The position numbers and the translations under genes are program-made. 64,000 nt of DNA from Patescibacteria group bacterium (GTDB lineage: Bacteria; Patescibacteriota; Microgenomatia; UBA8517), in NCBI GenBank assembly GCA_041480845.1, contig JBGPAU010000001.1, positions 5,382 to 69,381 on the forward strand, read 5' to 3'. The first letter of the stretch is position 1, and every line of letters starts with the position of its first letter. This document shows positions 3,847 through 63,922 of this stretch, in pieces. The notes beneath the pieces are model-generated. The model was not told the origin of the DNA and searched no databases. It saw only the letters and a program-made list of their open reading frames with translations.

Positions 3847-3866
3847 TGAGCCGAGAGTGGGGATCG
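3847..3866 (-). repeat. Orphan direct copy (19/19) of the tRNA-Thr 3' end, 53 bp beyond the gene.
   Basis: GAGCCGAGAGTGGGGATCG is identical to 3918-3936. Confidence 0.7.
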
Positions 3867-3918
3867 TGTGCATATTCTATACCTGGCACTATCGATACCC
3901 AAGAACGGCGACTTATGG

Positions 3919-6812: not shown

Positions 6813-7223
6813 ATGAATATAACCTCAAACATTAAAGGACAATTGGCTGTAAGTAAAACCGAACTTAGAGCATTGGAATTAGGATTTTTACCCTCCAGGC
6901 CGCTCTTTGATACAAGATACGACTTGATTATTGATGATCACGAATCTTTGGTTCGTGTACAAATTAAGTATGCTGACGGGAAATCTGCAAATAGTACTGG
7001 AGTTGTTGTAACAAAATTGGAATATATTGACAGGCAAAAGAAAACTTTTACATATAGGGATGAGGAGGTAGATGCCTTAATTGTGTATATCCCGAAAGTT
7101 GACAAACTGTGTTATATACCCAAAAAGCTGTTTATTGGGAAAAGAAAATTAAATATTCGAATTTCAAAATCCAAAAATAACCAGAAAAAAGGCATAATTG
7201 CGGCAGAAGACTATTACTGGTAG
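6813..7223 (+). CDS. Hypothetical 136-aa protein, possibly with a PD-(D/E)xK-like nuclease fold. Lies immediately upstream of the intron-containing tRNA-Asp.
   Basis: Intact ORF, basic C-terminus. D...EVD...K spacing (RDEEVDALIVYIPK) is weakly reminiscent of a restriction-endonuclease-like fold. Confidence 0.3.
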   Translation: MNITSNIKGQLAVSKTELRALELGFLPSRPLFDTRYDLIIDDHESLVRVQIKYADGKSANSTGVVVTKLEYIDRQKKTFTYRDEEVDALIVYIPKVDKLCYIPKKLFIGKRKLNIRISKSKNNQKKGIIAAEDYYW

Positions 7224-7226: not shown

Positions 7227-7234
7227 ACGCATGT

Positions 7235-7524
7235 GGGGTCGTAGCTCAATGGCTAGAGCGCTTCCCTGTCAAATGTGGCAGCGCCCCGGTGTGAATTGGG
7301 GTGTAAAACCAGGCTAATTCGGGGAACATCCGGAGTTTATCGAAGGACAATCCCGAGCTAAATTTCTAGATAACGTTTTGGGCTGTAAGTCCTGAGCGAA
7401 GTCGAAGGATAAATGTGTAGAGACTATATACCTGGCTCCTTTTAAAGGATGATGAGATAGTCCAAACTTTTTGAAATAAGAAGGAGCACGGAAGAGGTTG
7501 CGAGTCCGAATCTCGTCGACCCCG
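7235..7524 (+). tRNA. tRNA-Asp (anticodon GUC) interrupted by a group I intron. Exon 1 is 7235-7269, exon 2 is 7487-7524.
   Basis: The 5' half (GGGGUCG-UA-GCUCAAUGGCUAGAGC-G-CUUCC-CUGU) and 3' half (CAC-GGAAG-AGGUU-GCGAG-UCCGAAU-CUCGU-CGACCCC-G) assemble into a canonical cloverleaf with anticodon loop CUGUCAC. Confidence 0.75.
7270..7486 (+). ncRNA. Group I self-splicing intron (about 217 nt) in the tRNA-Asp anticodon loop, inserted between nt 35 and 36.
   Basis: 5' exon ends in U; intron ends in G. Guide sequence GUGGCAG near the intron 5' end pairs with 5' exon CUGU (P1) and with 3' exon CAC (P10). P-like AAUUGGGG, Q-like AAUCCCGAG, R-like GUAGAGACUAUA and S-like GAGAUAGUCC elements are present. 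Confidence 0.7.
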
Positions 7525-7539
7525 CCCACATTTAAAGGA

Positions 7540-16052: not shown

Positions 16053-19000
16053 TGTCAAAATTTGTTCATCTTCACGTTCACACGGAATACTCGCTTCTTG
16101 ATGGACTTTCAAATATAAAAAAACTCTTAAGTCACGTCAAAGAAAACGGGATGGATTCCGTCGCCATAACCGATCATGGGGTGATGTATGGCGAGATAGA
16201 ATTTTACAAGGAGGCTAAAAAGCAGGAAGTCAAACCTATTTTGGGGATGGAAGGCTATATTACGCAGGGATTATTGACGGATAGGCCGGGAAGGGGCGAA
16301 CTTCATAATTACCATTTAATACTTTTGGCAAAAGATAATGAAGGCTACCAGAATTTAATGAAGCTCACCTCAATTGCGCATCTCATGGGGTATTATTACA
16401 AGCCAAGGTTTGATAGAGAAACTCTGCAAAAATATTCAAAAGGTCTAATCTGCACATCGGCCTGCCCACTGGGAGAGGTCGGTCAGGCAATATTAGATAA
16501 TGAACCTGCGAAAGCAAAGAAAATTGTCGAGTGGTACCTTGATGTTTTCGGTAAAGACTACTTCCTGGAAATTCAAAGACATGAATTTGGCAGCTGGGTT
16601 GAAAAGGCCCAAAATCAGGAAATTAAGACTTCTCTAATCGAAATGGCCGAGAATGAAAAAAAGTGGAATCAGGGGATTTTAAAACTGAGCAGGGAAATGG
16701 GGGTGCCGGTAGTGGCAACAAACGATGCACATTATATAAAGTCTGTTGACGCTTTGGCACAGGATATTTTGGTTTGTGTTTCTACGGGTAAAGTTGTTAC
16801 TGATATCAAAAGGATGCGCTATATCGACGCGCAGACCTTCTATGTAAGAAGTCCAGAAGAAATGACAGGTCTTTTTTCTGACGTTCCCGATGCTTTGGAA
16901 AATACAGTTAAGATTGCAGATAAATGCAATGTTGAAATTACCCTGGGAAAGTGGTCTTTTCCCAAGTTTCCACTACCTGAAGGAGTAACGTCAAACGATC
17001 AACTTAAAACCCTTGCCAGAGAAAGTCTTAAAAAAGTGATTCCAAAACCCGATAAAGAAACTAGGCAACGCCTGGAGCATGAACTTGAAATTATTTGCAG
17101 CAAAGGCTACGCACCTTATTTTTTGATCGTCCGCGATTTAGCCAATTGGACGAATTCACGAGGAATTATCACTAATACAAGAGGTTCGGCTGCGGGGAGC
17201 TTGGTTTCTTATGTATTGGGGATTACAACCGTTAATCCCCTTAAATATTATTTACCTTTTGAACGTTTCTTAAATCCTTTTAGGCCAAGTCCCCCGGATA
17301 TTGACTTTGATGTGGCTGATGACCGGAGAGAGGAGATAATCGGTTATATTACGGAAAAATATGGTAGAGAAAAAGTGGCTCAGGTTTGCACTTTCGGTAG
17401 AATGTTGAGTAGGGCAGCAGTACGGGATGTTGCCAGGGTTTTGGGATATCCTTATTCTACCGGAGACAGGATTGCCAAAATAATCCCGCCTCCAAAACAG
17501 GGTTTCCCGATTACAATTCCAAACGCACTCGAAGAGGTGCTTGATCTTAGAAATCTTTATGACACGGACCCCGATACTAAAAAGGTTTTGGATTTGGCTA
17601 TTCAAATCGAAGGGAATGCCAGACATGTTTCGGTGCACGCCGCAGGTGTAGTTGTTGCTCCCAGCGCAATTACTGATTATTCTCCGGTGCAGAAGGAACC
17701 TTCAGGAGAAAAAATAATAACACAGTACGAAATGCATGCTTGCGAAGATGTCGGTCTCATTAAATTTGATATTCTCGGAATCAGAAATTTGTCCATTCTC
17801 GGTGCGGCTGTTGACATAGTCAAGACGCGTTTGGGAATTAATGTTGACCTTCATACAATTCCCCTTGATGACAAAAAAACTTTTGAGATGCTGGCCAAAG
17901 GAGAAACAATGGGAGTATTTCAATTTGCCAGCGGTGGAATGACAAAATATCTGACCGAACTAAAACCCACTCAAATTGAAGATTTGATGGTAATGGTTGC
18001 ACTTTATAGGCCGGGACCGATATCACAGATACCGGAATATATCAGAAGGAAACACAATCCCAAATTAATTAAATATTTGGATCCGAGAATGGAAAAGTTT
18101 TTAGGAAAATCGTTCGGGTTAATCGTTTATCAGGATGATTTGCTTTTTTGCGCCCTCGACCTTGCCGGCTATACTTGGGAGGAAGCAGATAAATTTAGAA
18201 AAGCTGTGGGTAAAAAAATTCCCGAAGAAATGGCAGCCCAGAAAGAGAAGTTTAAGAAAGGGATAGTGGCTAATGGGCAAACGGAGGAATTTGCCGAACA
18301 TCTTTGGGAACTTTTTGAGCCCTTCCAGTCATACGGGTTTAACAAAGCCCATGCCGCCTCATATGGGATGGTTGCTTATCAGACAGCTTATATGAAGGCA
18401 AATTATTCGGTTGAGTATATGACCGCACTTCTTACCGCCGAATCTGACGATAAAGATAAAGTGACAGCTGCAATAAATGAATGTGTCAGGATGAAGATAA
18501 AAGTTCTCCCGCCCGATATTAACGAGTCGGAAGTCGGTTTTACCATTGTTCCCGAACAGAATTCTTTGAACGGAAAAGGTATCAGGTTTGGTCTTTCTGC
18601 AATTAAGAATGTGGGCGAAGCGGCAATCGGGGCAATTCTTTCAGCCAGGGAGGGTAAAAAGTTTTTGTCCTTTGCTGATTTTTTGTCAAAAGTTGACGGC
18701 AGAAAAGTAAATAAGAAGGTTCTTGAAAGCTTAATTAAAGTTGGTGCAATGTCAGCATTTGGTTCACGGGCTGCACTTTTGGCTTCGGTAGACTCCATTC
18801 GCGAAAAAGTTACAAAACCAAAAGGGGATGATAACCAACAAGGACTTTTTGCTACGGGAGAAATTAAAAAGACCGAAGCTGCATCGGTAATTACAATTTC
18901 CAATGTTCAGGAGTTTTCGGACGATGAGCTCGAATCTTTAGAGCGTCAACTTTTGGGATTTTCCCTTTCCGCAAAGCCCATCTCGGAACTTATCGGCCCC

Positions 19001-20769: not shown

Positions 20770-20805
20770 TTGTTCTTTTACTTTTCGTATGCGGGTGTAG
20801 CTTAT

Positions 20806-20880
20806 AGGCTGGTGGCTCAGTCCGGTTAGAGCGCCGCAGTTTAAATGCGGAGGTCGGAGGTTCAAGTCCTTCCCAGCCTA
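20806..20880 (+). tRNA. Class I tRNA with anticodon UUA (ochre-suppressor-like; derived from tRNA-Lys or similar).
   Basis: Acceptor AGGCUGG/CCAGCCU, D-arm GCUCAGUCCGGUUAGAGC, anticodon arm CCGCA-GUUUAAA-UGCGG (positions 34-36 = UUA), 5-nt variable loop, T-arm GGAGG-UUCAAGU-CCUUC. Confidence 0.5.
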
Positions 20881-20881
20881 T

Positions 20882-45174: not shown

Positions 45175-45831
45175 ATGCCAAACGAAGAAAAATCTAAAAG
45201 AAAAAGGATGGTTGTTGAGGAAGTTAAATCCGAAGAAACTCCAAAAGCGGAAGAAGCTTCAAAAAAGGAAGAAAATGCAGCCGAAGCTGTAATTGAACCA
45301 AAAATACTTGACGAGGCCGCCACAGATACGGTTTCCATCGAGCCACAACTTGAAACTAAAAAATCATCTTTGATTGCTCTTTGGATAATTATCCCCGGAA
45401 TTTTCCTTCTTGGTGCAATTTTGGGAGGAATTGTTTTCTACCAAAGAGGGGTTAGCAGCAGTCAGGAAGTAACTCCGACTCCGACAGCCGCTCCGACTTC
45501 GGCTCCGGTCGTGTCCGCAAGTCCTTCTGCTTCCGCCGTCTTGACCAAATATACAATCAACATTTTTAACGGATCAGGAATTGCCGGAGAGGCAGCCAAA
45601 GCAAAAACTTTATTGACTACCGCGGGATTCAAAGTGGGTTCTACCGCAAATGCGGCGAGTTATGACTACACAAAAACCATTATTAAAGCCAAAATTACGG
45701 TAGAAGCCTCATTTGTAGCTGCGCTTTCTACGGCGCTTGCAAAAAGTTACTCTGTCGATACCGCCCAAACTCTTGCAAGTACTTCAGCCGATACCGTTCA
45801 GGTTGTCATCGGAAGCTCCAAGGCCCAATAA
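45175..45831 (+). CDS. Membrane protein with LytR C-terminal (LytR_C) domain.
   Basis: TM helix, Pro/Thr/Ala-rich linker, and the LytR_C pattern (YTINIFNGSGIAGEAAKA...GFKVG). Confidence 0.5.
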   Translation: MPNEEKSKRKRMVVEEVKSEETPKAEEASKKEENAAEAVIEPKILDEAATDTVSIEPQLETKKSSLIALWIIIPGIFLLGAILGGIVFYQRGVSSSQEVTPTPTAAPTSAPVVSASPSASAVLTKYTINIFNGSGIAGEAAKAKTLLTTAGFKVGSTANAASYDYTKTIIKAKITVEASFVAALSTALAKSYSVDTAQTLASTSADTVQVVIGSSKAQ

Positions 45832-45833
45832 TT

Positions 45834-45870
45834 TAATTTTGAGCGGGATAGTCGTGGAGCGGGATAAGCA
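45834..45870 (-). repeat. Two orphan direct copies of the tRNA-Gly(UCC) 3' end plus flank: AATTTTGAGCGGGATAG at 45834-45851 and GAGCGGGATAAG at 45858-45869.
   Basis: Exact 17-nt match to 45894-45910 (the tRNA 3' end plus 7 nt of flank). Confidence 0.7.
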
Positions 45871-45900
45871 AAGCTTGTCCCTCTCAAAATCAGAATTTTG

Positions 45901-45971
45901 AGCGGGATAGGGGAGTCGAACCCCTCTTCACAGCTTGGAAAGCTGTTGTTAAGCCGATTAACTAATCCCGC
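45901..45971 (-). tRNA. tRNA-Gly (anticodon UCC).
   Basis: Acceptor GCGGGAU/AUCCCGC, anticodon arm ACAGC-UUUCCAA-GCUGU, T-arm AGGGG-UUCGACU-CCCCU. Confidence 0.75.
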
Positions 45972-45988
45972 ACTGACGTATTTTAACA

Positions 45989-46600
45989 TTATTTTCTGAA
46001 CTGATCGAGAACAGCAGGGTCATCATCGGGGTGAAGCATGACCAAGGCCCAATGATCATTTAAGGATCCGTCCTTTTTGTCATCGACCCAGAGTTTGTCA
46101 AGAACATCATACGGAATATAATAAACATTTTCCTCCCTAGTATTTATTACCCCGTAATTACCCTCTACCACTATTTCGTCTTTAGAAGGATCAATTATAA
46201 GTGCATATGGGACCTTTTGTATTTCTTTCAGTTGGGCCAAAATTATATAGTGGCCGTCAACCCCATCCACTTTTTTGCCCAAAACTTTATCCACACGTTC
46301 CAAACAATCTGTCACGTCGAGAACCATAACAACTCGTGCACTGGAAAGCAATTTTTCTACTTCTTCCTGCTTCCAATGCTCTCTAACAAGAATATGGGAG
46401 TCTGGAAGAAAACTTCTAGGCATTTCCGCAAGCTCATCAGGTTCGGTTCCCCATTCTGGATCCAAAACATGTATGTGAAGATCTTTTTGTTTAATGTGTT
46501 TTATTTCAAAAGCTTGTGCACCTGATTCGATTGTCCCATGAGCACATTTCCCGGCTTCGTTAAGTGGAATTCTTGGAATGTAAAAATATGTCTCTCTCAT
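45989..46600 (-). CDS. Hypothetical protein.
   Basis: ORF; start moved to MRETYF (46600) because the 16 codons upstream are encoded by the tRNA-Pro 3'-end repeat copy. Confidence 0.35.
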   Translation of the reverse strand: MRETYFYIPRIPLNEAGKCAHGTIESGAQAFEIKHIKQKDLHIHVLDPEWGTEPDELAEMPRSFLPDSHILVREHWKQEEVEKLLSSARVVMVLDVTDCLERVDKVLGKKVDGVDGHYIILAQLKEIQKVPYALIIDPSKDEIVVEGNYGVINTREENVYYIPYDVLDKLWVDDKKDGSLNDHWALVMLHPDDDPAVLDQFRK

Positions 46601-46605
46601 ATAAT

Positions 46606-46625
46606 AGTCGGAGTGCCCGGGCTCG
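46606..46625 (-). repeat. Orphan direct copy (20/20) of the tRNA-Pro 3' end plus 1 nt of flank.
   Basis: AGTCGGAGTGCCCGGGCTCG is identical to 46679-46698. Confidence 0.7.
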
Positions 46626-46679
46626 CCGTGCACATGCCAAGTTAGCACTATCGCGACCGAAACTCTGACGAATCATCGA

Positions 46680-46755: not shown

Positions 46756-46847
46756 TATATGTATTTTACCATTTCGTCGAGAAATGGCCAAGCTTAGCTT
46801 CTCATTATTAATAGACCTTTTTCCCTTAATTATCGTAAAATGGCTAT

Positions 46848-47636
46848 ATGGAGGGAATATCAAAAGCATTTTTGTTAATAGCACTTTTTATCTTAGCCTT
46901 AGGTTTATACATTTTTTATAATTGGTATTACCGATCGGTTCCTCAATCGGTAATTTACACACTTCCGCAAGTTCCGGAACCTAAATCAACCGACACAATT
47001 CTCATTTTTTCCCCCCACCCTGACGATGAAACTATTGCGGCCGGAGGTTATATAAAAGCTACTACATACGTTGGTGCTAAAGTCTGGATAGTTTTGGTAA
47101 CGGATGGGAATAAGCACCGTCTGGAAAAAATCAGATATAACGAATTTGAGACTGCAACAAATGAACTAGGTGTTAGTTTTGACCATCTTATTTATTTAAA
47201 TTATCCGGACGGTTCATTGAAAAATGAAAACCAGGCAAGTGTTCAGGAGGCACTTAATAAGATTATTTTGCAGGTCAATCCTAATATAATTTTTATCCCT
47301 CATCCGAAAGATACCCATCCTGATCATGCAACAACAGGAATTGATGCTGAGAAGGTTATTGCTGATTTAAAGAATGGGTCTCAAGTTTATTATTTTCTTG
47401 TTCATTTTCCGCATTTTCCAAGCCAGAAGGGTTTGAAAGAAAGGTTGTACGTAACACCTCCGCTAAAATTGCTGGAATTTTCAAAAGAGTGGGTAAGCTT
47501 TCCACTAACTCAACAAATGGAGGATTCTAAACAGGCTGCACTTTTGTCGTATAAATCCCAGCTTAAATACCCACCATTACGGTCACTTATTGAAGCATTC
47601 CCCAGACGTAATGAACTGTTTGAAGTAAACAGATAG
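46848..47636 (+). CDS. LmbE/PIG-L family N-acetylglucosaminyl deacetylase.
   Basis: HPDDE motif (ILIFSPHPDDETIAAGG), downstream HPDH, and an N-terminal TM. Confidence 0.7.
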   Translation: MEGISKAFLLIALFILALGLYIFYNWYYRSVPQSVIYTLPQVPEPKSTDTILIFSPHPDDETIAAGGYIKATTYVGAKVWIVLVTDGNKHRLEKIRYNEFETATNELGVSFDHLIYLNYPDGSLKNENQASVQEALNKIILQVNPNIIFIPHPKDTHPDHATTGIDAEKVIADLKNGSQVYYFLVHFPHFPSQKGLKERLYVTPPLKLLEFSKEWVSFPLTQQMEDSKQAALLSYKSQLKYPPLRSLIEAFPRRNELFEVNR

Positions 47637-47643
47637 CGAAGTA

Positions 47644-47680
47644 GTGCCGAGGGCGGTACTATACTCGGACTTACTCGGAT
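47644..47680 (-). repeat. Orphan copy of the tRNA-Leu(UAA) 3' end (GTGCCGAGGGCGG, 13/13) followed by scrambled T-loop-like ACTCGGA x2. Lies about 590 bp beyond the tRNA 3' end.
   Basis: Matches 48248-48260. Segment 47681-48247 contains a single ORF. Confidence 0.55.
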
Positions 47681-47792
47681 ATTTCAATGATACCTCAAAT
47701 GAGGCTGTAATTCTGGCCGGCCAACTGGAGTTACTAAAAGACCACTTGAAAGAAACAAAACTCCACGTTAACCTTTGGGCGTGAAGTAAAAT

Positions 47793-48206
47793 TTAACCCT
47801 TTTTCTCTCCTCCAAATAAAGTAGTGAGTGATAAAGCAGCCCACAAAGAAATTAATGTTTCAGTTTCAACTTCATTAAAACCTGCTTTCCTGGCAGCATT
47901 ATCTAAATTCTTTTTCTTTTCTGCTTCACTTACCCCTTTTGGTAAATTGTCTTGGATCGAACCGATAGCTTCACCGACAGCAAGCATCACAATTTTATCT
48001 GTTCGGCTAATGGATTCTCTAAGAAATTCTCTTGATAAAGAACTTTTAACTATATGGTCTGGAGTTGCATATAAATTTCTTAGCTTTTCCCAAAGCATTG
48101 CATAGCTGTTACCATCAGCGTCAACTTTTACAAATGTTTCATTCTTTGCATTATCAATAAATTCAATTTGATTAACGACCATCCCATTTGGAAGCTTTAT
48201 ATTCAT
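47793..48206 (-). CDS. Hypothetical protein encoded inside the segment bounded by tRNA-Leu(UAA) and its orphan 3'-end copy.
   Basis: 137-aa ORF with no recognisable motif. Confidence 0.35.
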   Translation of the reverse strand: MNIKLPNGMVVNQIEFIDNAKNETFVKVDADGNSYAMLWEKLRNLYATPDHIVKSSLSREFLRESISRTDKIVMLAVGEAIGSIQDNLPKGVSEAEKKKNLDNAARKAGFNEVETETLISLWAALSLTTLFGGEKKG

Positions 48207-48331: not shown

Positions 48332-48584
48332 TAATTAAATTCGTTAAAGATCTCTTTTTTCATCCACACCCTCCCTGATCTAGACTTAAGATATTTCTCT
48401 TTCTTTAGTGCATCAATTTTATTAGAATAACTCTCAAGATAAATTAAAATCCAAGGTTTATATCTCTTAGTAAAATAACTTCTTCCATCATTATGTTCAT
48501 TCAATCTCCGTTCAGGGTTGTCTGTAATACCTACTTAACTTTTAATCTTGATTGTGCTTAACAGCACATAAATGTAATACATTT

Positions 48585-48633
48585 ACCATTTCGTCCGCCT
48601 AGGCTCGCGCCTAGCGAGACTGGCCACCTCGGC
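48585..48633 (-). pseudogene. tRNA-Leu 5' fragment: 20-nt copy of GCCGAGGUGGC|GAAAUGGUA interrupted after nt 11 by a 30-nt palindromic insert (CAGTCTCGCTAGGCGCGAGCCTAGGCGGAC). Lies 5 bp downstream of tRNA-Arg.
   Basis: Aligns to 48312-48331 of the intact tRNA-Leu(UAA). No matching 3' half nearby. Confidence 0.5.
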
Positions 48634-52568: not shown

Positions 52569-52623
52569 TGTGTCCCTGGACAGAATCGAACTGTCATCTC
52601 CTCCTTAGAAGGGAGATGCTCTA
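52569..52623 (-). repeat. Orphan 55-nt direct copy of the 3' two-thirds of tRNA-Arg(UCU) (3' end through anticodon arm), 97 bp beyond the intact gene.
   Basis: Identical to 52666-52720. Confidence 0.7.
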
Positions 52624-52667
52624 CCTCGTTGGACGCGGCAAGCTACGCTTATCCGTTGACCTCGCTG

Positions 52668-54858: not shown

Positions 54859-54866
54859 AAAATCAT

Positions 54867-55000
54867 ATTTTGACGAGACAAGATTCCTCTTATCTCGGCA
54901 TGAACGAAGTGAATGCGGAGACAAGCTCTGCTTATCTCGGCGCTTCACCATTATTTTGCCGAGACAAGGTTCTAGCGAAGCCAGGTTCATATCTCGGCAT
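54867..55000. repeat. Tandem array of three extra imperfect hairpin units (about 40-59 bp each). Each unit is GRCGAGACAAG...YTATCTCGGC, where the 3' arm is a copy of the tRNA-Phe 5' end (TATCTCGGC).
   Basis: TATCTCGGC occurs at 54850, 54892, 54933 and 54992. GNCGAGACAAG occurs at 54872, 54915 and 54958. The arms are mutually complementary. Confidence 0.6.
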
Positions 55001-55009
55001 GTATTTTAG

Positions 55010-55208: not shown

Positions 55209-55228
55209 TGTGCCAAGGGCGGGAGTTG
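55209..55228 (-). repeat. Orphan copy (18/20) of the tRNA-Leu(CAG) 3' end, 50 bp beyond the gene. Forms a 7-bp hairpin with a downstream complement (TGCCAAG...CTTGGCA).
   Basis: TGTGCCAAGGGCGGGAGTTG versus AGTGCCGAGAGCGGGAGTTG at 55278-55297. Confidence 0.55.
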
Positions 55229-55279
55229 TATGCAAGACATATACAATGCTTGGCATTATCAAGCCCCGATCGAGGCAAG

Positions 55280-61573: not shown

Positions 61574-61707
61574 AGATAGCAACTCTTTCAAAATCCGCTA
61601 CAACTAGCTTATTTATACACATGATATTTCTTTAGCAAACATCATATCTACTATCTTTTGAAACTTTTAGACAATTACCATTTCGTTTCGAAATGGCCAA
61701 GCTTTGC

Positions 61708-61968
61708 TTATTGTCTTGGTTCCATCGGGCGGGCTATGTTGACATTAATCTTGCGGCCTTTAAGGTCTGCTTGATTAAACATCTCAATAGATTTCTTGGC
61801 CTCTTCGTCGCTTGACATGGTTACAAAACCAAATCCGCGGCTTCTTCCGGTCATTTTGTCGCTTATTACGGCGGCATCAACAACTGCTCCGGCACCTGCA
61901 AAGAGGGCCTTAAGGTCATCTGCCGTGACTTCCCACGACAAATTTCCTACAAAAAGTTTAGATTGCAT
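61708..61968 (-). CDS. RNA-binding protein with single RRM.
   Basis: RNP-2 (LFVGNL) and RNP-1 (RGFGFVTM). Confidence 0.8.
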   Translation of the reverse strand: MQSKLFVGNLSWEVTADDLKALFAGAGAVVDAAVISDKMTGRSRGFGFVTMSSDEEAKKSIEMFNQADLKGRKINVNIARPMEPRQ

Positions 61969-63844: not shown

Positions 63845-63866
63845 CGAGTGGACGCTGGAGGGCTCG
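63845..63866 (-). repeat. Orphan direct copy (22/22) of the tRNA-Val(GAC) 3' end plus 4 nt of flank, 53 bp beyond the gene.
   Basis: CGAGTGGACGCTGGAGGGCTCG is identical to 63919-63940. Confidence 0.7.
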
Positions 63867-63922
63867 TGCGCACAACCATAACACGAGCGCTATTGAGACC
63901 CCACGGACACGAGCGAAGCGAG

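Follow-up and report, generated by a model that had tools for sequence, protein, structure and literature searches.

Short repeats of the 3′-ends of tRNA genes are routinely taken as the boundaries of prophages or genomic islands. The attC sites of integrons and the attP hairpin of phage CTX act as folded single-strand recombination sites, and cassettes are known that comprise nothing but attC and lack an open reading frame (ORF). [quoted passage not shown] Here, we analyzed a stretch of 64,000 nucleotides (hereafter the window) of a Patescibacteria group bacterium (GTDB lineage Microgenomatia; UBA8517; assembly GCA_041480845.1, contig JBGPAU010000001.1, positions 5,382 to 69,381 of the forward strand), a genome of Candidatus Woesebacteria, that contains three copies of the tRNA-Gly(UCC) 3′-end. 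The three copies are the arms and the flanking repeat of a gene-less, hairpin-forming insert of 59 bp and not the scars of successive prophages. We tentatively, and with close to even confidence, assign this insert to a family of palindromic insertion units, small and devoid of cargo, which would have arisen through events on the DNA at tRNA gene termini while keeping the gene intact.

The tRNA-Gly(UCC) gene (45900-45971, minus strand) is intact as judged by ARAGORN and by a match to the Rfam tRNA model of 56.8 bits at positions 45901-45971. It encodes no CCA and terminates with TATCCCGCTC, followed by AAAATT. The gene converges with a LytR_C-domain gene on the plus strand (45175-45831; Pfam PF13399; TAA stop codon at 45829-45831). 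Direct reading as well as a repeat search revealed exactly two occurrences of AATTTTGAGCGGGATAG, one spanning 45835-45851 and the other 45894-45910, 59 nucleotides apart, and showed that a third occurrence, GAGCGGGATA, spans positions 45857-45866 (GAGCGGGATAAG, 45857-45868). The original prediction, made from the letters alone, had reported these three copies as well; they are real and the position 45894-45910 was correct, but the other two had been placed one nucleotide off, at 45834-45851 and 45858-45869. It did not comprise three further features described below, namely an inverted copy at 45878-45890, the hairpin pairing of copy 2, and the extension of copy 3 to position 45854.

The 17-nucleotide repeat is composed of the last 11 nucleotides of tRNA-Gly and 6 nucleotides of its 3′ trailer, and is antisense on the plus strand. 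In tRNA sense, the region reads tRNA...CTATCCCGCTC AAAATT CTG ATTTTGAGAGGGA CAAGC TTT GCT TATCCCGCTC CACGA CTATCCCGCTC AAAATT AAAT, followed by the reverse complement of the stop codon. Copy 1 (45894-45910, minus strand; CTATCCCGCTCAAAATT in tRNA sense) represents the real 3′-end with its trailer. Copy 2 (45857-45867, minus strand; TTATCCCGCTC) forms the 3′ arm of a hairpin, and the trailer behind it, CACGA, differs from that of the gene. Copy 3 (45835-45854, minus strand; CGACT, ATCCCGCTC, AAAATT) corresponds to a displaced tRNA 3′-end, as indicated by the alignment with an empty site discussed below. It reaches position 45854 as CGACT, equivalent to T-loop C56-U60, if the 5-nucleotide T-stem strand CCCCT is skipped, and it joins the ancestral trailer directly, 4 nucleotides from the LytR_C stop codon. 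The inverted copy, termed A′ (45878-45890, minus strand; ATTTTGAGAGGGA in tRNA sense), was found by the repeat search and in the predicted folds; it is complementary to copy 1 plus trailer at 12 of 13 positions with a 4-nucleotide turn in between, and folding indicates that it is able to pair with copy 1, copy 2, or copy 3. Copies 1 and 3 form a direct repeat of 17 nucleotides around 42 nucleotides, and copies 2 and 3 are 5 nucleotides apart. Between tRNA-Gly and the hairpin lies an AT-rich mini-palindrome, AAAAT-TCTG-ATTTT (45886-45899, minus strand). In other lineages this slot is taken by CGAG-N5-CGAG, and a similar AAAAT-ATG-ATTTT adjoins the tRNA-Phe gene of the window.

With at most one mismatch allowed, CTATCCCGCTC has three matches in the 64 kb, all within 70 nucleotides, compared with 0.63 expected, which excludes chance as the origin of the copies; for an exact 17-mer pair within 2 kb we estimate an expectation of ~1e-4. 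The original prediction had named read evidence of collapse or misassembly as its refutation, and this was not borne out. The metagenome-assembled genome GCA_041489295.1 at NCBI and two Logan assemblies (runs SRR35959930 and SRR29605724) are 100% identical to the window over 3.8-8.8 kb spanning the site. As three assemblies that stem from at least two sequencing runs and from different pipelines agree, the objection is removed, and the chance that a collapse or chimera at a repeated tRNA end created the copies is negligible.

Copy 2 and A′ are the 3′ arm and its partner in an imperfect hairpin of 29 nucleotides (45857-45885), which reads GAGAGGGACAAGC-TTT-GCTTATCCCGCTC in tRNA sense and GAGCGGGATAAGC-AAA-GCTTGTCCCTCTC on the plus strand; its cap in tRNA sense is AAGC-TTT-GCTT. 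A metagenome scan with this tRNA-Gly 3′-end yielded 104 distinct downstream contexts. About 10 of them, as well as the genome locus L010, contain a linker, either CGAG-N5-CGAG or AAAAT-N4-ATTTT depending on the lineage, and then GAGAGGGACAAGC-TTT-GCTTATCCCGCTC directly after tRNA-Gly, while ~90% of the tRNA-Gly genes with the same 3′-end carry no hairpin. In an alignment of the hairpin with seven rows, 76% of the cells are paired and two mismatches are kept in 6-7 of the 7 rows; the top contains two compensatory pairs, with AAGC/GCTT, AAAC/GTTT, and AAGA/TCTT in different lineages. The 3′ arm follows the tRNA of the respective lineage (TATCCCGCTC in the window, TACCCGCTC in L010), but the 5′ arm does not. 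Moreover, two or three hairpin units are arranged in tandem in L103 and L158. The outer 17-nucleotide repeat was found in none of the other hairpin-bearing loci (~10 contexts and L010). By this comparison, the hairpin at tRNA-Gly appears to be old and the outer repeat young.

A scan for terminators returned no site at 45830-45900 on either strand and no enrichment for such sites in the region (13 compared with 14.2 expected), and no U-tract is present behind the hairpin; an intrinsic (Rho-independent) terminator was therefore rejected. Likewise, a known structured RNA family was rejected on the basis of a search of Rfam 15, in which only tRNAs match at gathering scores or at E<=5; the best non-tRNA match, Tymo_tRNA-like with 17.3 bits against a gathering score of 40, overlaps the tRNA itself. 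The CCA that follows copy 2 was considered as a mark of a copy derived from mature tRNA. This was also rejected, since lineages that lack the hairpin frequently have GCTC followed by CATACGG or CACGA as the genomic trailer of this tRNA.

In locus L169, an orthologue of the LytR_C gene converges on tRNA-Gly and the end of the tRNA lies 8 nucleotides from its stop codon, thereby providing an exact empty site. Alignment indicates that the window equals this site plus 59 nucleotides bounded by copies 1 and 3, a difference that would fit either an insertion in the lineage of the window or a repeat-mediated deletion in L169. The tRNA-Gly site is filled in the window and in L010 and empty in L169. 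Similarly, the tRNA-Lys site is empty in L004, filled in L001 and L005, and half-deleted in L008, and the flank past the distal copy is again the ancestral one. Two further observations concern this tRNA. The tRNA-Lys(CUU) gene next to a GTPase gene (L001-L013) is inverted relative to its neighbors in about half of the related genomes, and L011 contains, at 7070-7130, an inverted 12-nucleotide tRNA-Lys 5′ fragment beside a 35-nucleotide 3′ fragment of a different tRNA-Lys allele, which suggests a recombination within the gene.

No larger element could be assigned to the site. In several relatives, the genes for tRNA-Leu(UAA), tRNA-Pro, and tRNA-Gly(UCC) form a tight cluster, and here they are separated by inserted ORFs at 45989-46648 (minus strand) and 46848-48206, which comprise an ORF of 219 amino acids, an ORF of 137 amino acids, and a PIG-L deacetylase gene. 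The two former have no Pfam match, none of the cluster inserts is bracketed by tRNA repeats, and the 219-aa ORF sits outside the tRNA-Pro repeat pair. Since neither the Gly nor the Pro 3′-end recurs elsewhere in the 64 kb, an element bounded by distant copies was rejected. Pfam searches with 30 ORFs around all units, including those tested within 7 kb, did not reveal an integrase or transposase domain, and no REP-associated tyrosine transposase (RAYT; Y1 HUH) was present among these 30 ORFs; the sequence of this genome that was analyzed comprised the 64-kb window and a 23-kb contig.

The arrangement is not confined to tRNA-Gly. Similar units are present at 8 of the 18 tRNA genes in the window and occur sporadically in related Woesebacteria. 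Seven of the 18 (Thr, Gly-UCC, Pro, Val-GAC, Leu-CAG, Leu-UAG, and Arg-UCU) are followed by a copy of their 3′-end 36-80 nucleotides downstream, and tRNA-Phe is preceded by three copies of its own 5′-end. When 13 related loci were included with the window, 12 of 127 tRNAs showed downstream matches at 13 or more of 16 positions, compared with ~0.08 by chance according to an analytical estimate. Outward from the gene, each unit begins with the tRNA end, continues with an inverted copy that is imperfect and with an apical module shared among units, and closes with a perfect direct copy.

A sister type of the tRNA-Gly unit was identified at seven tRNAs, namely Thr, Pro, Val, and Leu-CAG in the window, Lys in L001 and L005, and Gly-GCC in L011. 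Its arm is 65-70% complementary to the tRNA end and is followed by AT-AGTGCC, 12-18 variable nucleotides, and GCACA, with an apical stem that co-varies among the units (GTGC/GCAC, ATGC/GCAT, GCGC/GCGC). The distal copy has a length of 19-22 nucleotides, starts exactly at C56 in all seven units, and, in the four units of the window, runs to 1-4 nucleotides past the gene end. It is perfect in the units of tRNA-Pro(UGG) (46606-46679; copy of 20 nucleotides at 46606-46625), tRNA-Thr(CGU) (3848-3915; 19 nucleotides from C56 at 3848-3866), and tRNA-Val(GAC) (63845-63921; 22 nucleotides from C56), and decayed to 17 of 19 matches in that of tRNA-Leu(CAG) (55210-55278), all on the minus strand. Between the inverted arm and the copy, the Pro unit contains the module GATAGTGCT...GTGCACGG, and an identical unit is present in the Logan contig L060. 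The module of the Leu-CAG unit, GATAATGCCAAGCA...TTGCATA, is common to this unit and the Lys unit of L005, at a different tRNA in a different genome; the two modules share 14 + 7 identical flanking bases. As a common end of the units, ACTTCGTTC is not enriched in comparison with expectation (10 matches, 14.4 expected).

For the seven sister-type units, we rejected the possibility that the repeats are the remains of a decayed full tandem copy of the tRNA, because the similarity of the spacer to the 5′ part of the cognate tRNA lies within shuffled controls and is no better than that to non-cognate tRNAs. The spacer of the tRNA-Gly unit reads by eye as inverted copy plus hairpin, and only the second copy at tRNA-Arg(UCU) shows homology to the 5′ two-thirds of the tRNA. 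In addition, we observed a third type of unit downstream of tRNA-Gly on other metagenome contigs of the Candidate Phyla Radiation (CPR; L079, L110, and L176). Its arm, ACGGGAGGAG, is followed by the module AAGTTTACCCTGA and a hairpin that varies, and then by GAAGGGA (AGGGA in L176) and a tRNA copy from ACTCCCC/ATTCCCG; the module could form tandem G.A pairs.

The units at tRNA-Phe and tRNA-Arg(UCU) share the cap GATAAGC-NNN-GCTTGTC with that at tRNA-Gly, and the point at which the perfect arm diverges from the tRNA is the same in each of them, directly behind GATA. The sequence GATAAGCNNNGCTTG has 5 matches compared with 0.22 expected, and four of them adjoin tRNAs. At tRNA-Arg(UCU), the unit (52579-52666, minus strand) is composed of a hairpin, TCAACGGATAAGC-GTA-GCTTGCC, and a 54-nucleotide second copy of the tRNA (positions 20-73). 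This 5′-truncated copy (52579-52634) scores 30.4 bits in Rfam, just above the tRNA gathering threshold of 29, and could therefore be mis-annotated as a gene; tRNA finders can report such fragments of units as partial genes. Upstream of tRNA-Phe(GAA), three tandem hairpins (54859-55008, minus strand) are located between tRNA-Val(UAC) and tRNA-Phe. Each hairpin has as its 5′ arm a perfect copy of the tRNA-Phe 5′-end, GCCGAGATA; the array is the mirror image of the Gly unit, and hairpins 2 and 3 enclose the ancestral leader of 15 nucleotides. The length of the Val-Phe spacer varies between 13 and 475 nucleotides in relatives. In L009, it contains an ORF (17194-17668) with motifs that resemble those of HNH endonucleases (DFDH...CANCH), a free-standing selfish gene where other genomes have hairpins. 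Directly after tRNA-Arg(UCG), at ~48584-48633 (minus strand) and ~250 nucleotides upstream of the real gene, we further observed a 5′ fragment of tRNA-Leu(UAA) (positions 1-20) that is split by a hairpin insert of 29 nucleotides.

Starting from the anatomy of these units, their recurrence, their presence/absence polymorphism, and the shared apical modules, all of which were observed, we infer that small palindromic units could be mobile and could duplicate their target. A small hairpin-forming sequence would insert at a fixed point of the tRNA gene, either after GATA (Gly type) or between T55 and C56 in the T-loop (sister type), and the insertion would duplicate the stretch from the entry point to a few nucleotides past the gene end. 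The tRNA would remain intact, and the old end would be pushed 45-80 bp away while remaining on the ancestral flank; copy 3 may accordingly represent the displaced older tRNA end, reaching from T-loop C56 to the original trailer. The mobilizing factor would have to act in trans, since the units carry neither cargo nor an enzyme. Slippage between the perfect direct repeats could then generate exact empty sites, half-deleted units, and tandem arrays. A filter for survival may operate as well: a lone inverted copy would be expected to compete with the acceptor stem, a second direct copy would sequester it, and the mismatches in the inverted arm would weaken this competition. Such a filter probably shapes the surviving units. 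Between convergent genes, the hairpin might in addition serve as a barrier.

The shared apical modules together with the fixed junctions argue for a copy-and-paste spread rather than for independent local accidents. Moreover, units at 5′ termini mirror those at 3′ termini, always with the perfect copy distal and the imperfect inverted copy proximal to the gene, and the orientation of loop and wobble pairs relative to transcription is consequently flipped between them. This symmetry and the trailer bases in the inverted copy point to a process on the DNA of the gene, and neither to mature tRNA nor to a function of the transcript. Several observations weigh against insertion units. No enzyme was found for them in the 64 kb of the genome that were examined. 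The arms are specific to the tRNA, unlike those of a simple mobile element, and an unexplained step of inverted target copying is required. The inverted arm is only ~65-92% complementary and the direct copy is perfect, a pattern that neutral decay from one event does not predict. The duplications have lengths of 17, 19, 20, 22, and 54 nucleotides, unlike those of a transposase with a fixed stagger, and terminal inverted repeats are absent from the inserts themselves. Furthermore, the apical modules within this genome have diverged, without a sign of very recent transposition, and the Gly hairpin occurs only beside tRNA-Gly, which fits vertical inheritance and loss, too. Finally, a scan of viral contigs for GATAGTGCC-N10-22-GCACACRA returned 45 loci, none of them tRNA-like in context, a number that we judged to be at about chance level; the sister-type module as the attP of a phage or plasmid was rejected accordingly.

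The most serious rival to insertion units is local template switching. Here, a fold-back (snap-back) of the nascent strand past the tRNA end would produce A′ and then copy 2 or copy 3, that is, the order A-A′-A in one step and without any mobility; the surviving products would be those whose inverted arm is sequestered by the distal copy, leaving the folding of the tRNA undisturbed, and later slippage between the direct repeats would add or remove units. We consider this unlikely, although several details speak in its favor. A′ includes the complement of the trailer (ATTTT), so that the gene locus, and not mature tRNA, must have served as its template. It follows after a turn of 4 nucleotides, as snap-back synthesis would give, with a perfect match of 13 of 13 in L158, and it can pair with all three copies. 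Copy 2, but not A′, tracks the tRNA of its own lineage, and the window contains a gene for a Y-family polymerase, though this is a weak argument. However, template switching does not account for apical modules of at least 20 nucleotides that are common to different tRNAs and genomes, for the fixed junctions at C56 and GATA^G, or for the two mismatches of A′ that are kept in nearly all aligned hairpins. A structure that the tRNA-Gly precursor would form in its 3′ trailer and that is selected at the RNA level, be it as a signal for processing or termination or as a shield between convergent genes, would offer another reason for the copies, as such a structure would have to pair with or mimic the acceptor strand. 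We regard this as distinctly less probable still. The conservation of the hairpin after tRNA-Gly in ~10 lineages with different gene neighbors and the compensatory pairs at its top are in line with it, as is the folding z-score of -2.5. Likewise, the tRNA-sense strand is the only one on which the CGAG-N4/5-CGAG linker of five lineages could form tandem G.A pairs, and a Watson-Crick AAAAT/ATTTT helix takes the place of this linker in the window. Yet the lack of a U-tract and of any excess of terminator-like sites does not support termination, the hairpin of L142 lies between two tRNAs that are 4 nucleotides apart, and the great majority of the tRNA-Gly genes with the same 3′-end, including that of L169 with the same synteny, do without it. 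The plus (antisense) strand folds at least equally well, the flipped orientation in 5′ and 3′ units is difficult to reconcile with a transcript, no Rfam family matches, and copy 3 would be left unexplained.

The original prediction had read the copies as nested att-like cores left by successive integration events at one site. In this scenario, two integrative elements (a prophage, plasmid, or island) would have entered the 3′-end of tRNA-Gly and would later have been deleted. Direct repeats of a tRNA 3′-end, a distal copy on the ancestral flank as in an attR, and the intact empty site of a relative are indeed the hallmark of integration into tRNA genes. The displaced copies start in the T-loop, which is reportedly a known sublocation for integrases (Williams 2002). 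Furthermore, the downstream fragments in L011 and L113 derive from different tRNA alleles, and genes have been inserted between tRNA-Leu, tRNA-Pro, and tRNA-Gly here in comparison with other Woesebacteria. Still, we consider this scenario improbable. One part of the prediction stands: at least two events at the DNA level are required at this tRNA terminus, because the hairpin with copy 2 is old and common to other lineages and the 17-nucleotide repeat was seen only in this genome, and the data support copies that are displaced or duplicated tRNA 3′-ends resulting from such events. That these events were integrations of elements is not supported, since only 42 and 5 nucleotides lie between the copies, no distant copy exists in the 64 kb, and neither an integrase nor a transposase domain was found in the ORFs tested within 7 kb. 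In addition, one of the presumed cores is merely a hairpin arm whose partner is the inverted copy, the recurrence at other tRNA genes of the window shows that the arrangement is not specific to tRNA-Gly, and the repeat comprises 6 nucleotides of trailer and only 11 of the tRNA. Independent deletions would not leave the same remnant of 45-60 nucleotides with the same apical motif at seven or more tRNAs, and the position of the 219-aa ORF outside the tRNA-Pro repeat pair likewise argues against a lost element.

If the insertion units are considered as a class, they might represent cargo-less hairpin mobile DNA of CPR bacteria that homes to tRNA termini (T55^C56 or GATA^G), probably as folded single strands, and regenerates the tRNA end; this broader proposal is possible but rather doubtful. 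We found no description of such units in the literature or in Rfam. For the annotation of genomes, it is of relevance that most of the short tRNA 3′-end repeats in this lineage bound only a hairpin of 45-80 bp, so that tools for finding islands or att sites would report too many integrations in CPR genomes. Should the units be mobile, they would rank with the smallest target-specific mobile DNAs known and would imply a Woesebacteria enzyme that recognizes hairpins of tRNA genes. If they are replication errors that were kept by selection, tRNA termini would seed new hairpins between tightly packed genes. If a class of homing hairpins exists, the flanks of tRNA genes would be hotspots of small structural variation in the reduced genomes of the CPR.

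The window contains further features related to tRNAs. At 20805-20881 (plus strand), 36 nucleotides after tRNA-Cys, we observed a tRNA (66.8 bits in Rfam) whose anticodon, UUA, would decode the stop codon UAA. As TAA is the most common stop codon of the long ORFs in the window (26 of 41), this tRNA would act as an ochre suppressor. A fragment that resembles a tRNA 5′-end (GCGGGTGTAGCTTA) lies before it and a strong hairpin behind it. At 7234-7525 (plus strand), a group I intron (7254-7483; 54.7 bits in Rfam) interrupts the anticodon loop of a tRNA that was not called by ARAGORN and reads by eye as tRNA-Asp(GUC). The ORF immediately upstream (6813-7223; PF11645) belongs to the PD-(D/E)XK endonucleases and could be a homing endonuclease. 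Moreover, a conserved module AAGC-NAA-GCTTGGCCATTTC-N4/5-CGAAATGGTAA is present twice on the minus strand, at 46763-46803 and 61675-61712. The one upstream of tRNA-Pro reads as a putative promoter (TTGGCC, 17 nucleotides, TGGTAAAAT), and the extended -10 sequence TGGTAAAAT also precedes tRNA-Lys.

In comparison with known systems, two classes of repeats were rejected for this locus. The 42-nucleotide insert is devoid of terminal inverted repeats and the duplications vary between 17 and 54 nucleotides (17, 19, 20, 22, 54), which is at variance with a miniature inverted-repeat transposable element or an insertion sequence with target-site duplication. Likewise, the spacings of 16 and 43 nucleotides and a 'spacer' that contains an inverted copy of the repeat do not correspond to a CRISPR or neo-CRISPR array, and no cas domains were found by Pfam in the ORFs tested. 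The att repeats at tRNA genes are more similar, as they share with the units the direct repeat of a tRNA 3′ segment, the regenerated tRNA, the old end on the ancestral flank, the empty site in relatives and, for the sister units, the boundary in the T-loop. Unlike at such sites, only 42-60 nucleotides lie between the repeats here, without an element, cargo, or integrase, the target copy is also present in inverted form, and mirror-image units occur at the 5′-end of a tRNA. With regard to the identity block of att sites, which extends from the anticodon loop or T-loop to the tRNA 3′-end, that of tRNA-Gly is exact over the last 11 nucleotides and the 6-nucleotide trailer and reaches C56 only with a gap of 5 nucleotides, whereas the seven sister units reach it. 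The inverted triplications (quasipalindromes) that result from template switching resemble the units in their order A-A′-A with short turns and in an inverted copy that includes trailer bases, but predict neither shared apical modules nor fixed junctions.

REP sequences, bacterial interspersed mosaic elements, and the RAYT-associated REPINs are likewise short, imperfect intergenic palindromes without coding capacity, sometimes in tandem or alternating arrays, and are presumed to be mobilized in trans as folded single strands, as proposed here for the units. REP elements, however, share one sequence throughout a genome, whereas only the apical 15-30 nucleotides are common to the units and the stems copy the adjacent tRNA; a GTAG or CGTC head is not visible in any of them. 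The attC and CTX attP hairpins differ in their target, which is attI or dif and not a tRNA gene, and no recombinase of the IntI or Xer type is linked to the units. By analogy, the units could nevertheless be compared with these hairpins in two respects: both would be imperfect hairpins with conserved mismatches, one arm of which matches the chromosomal target, and integration would in either case leave beside the target an imperfect copy in inverted orientation, a loop, and a copy in direct orientation.

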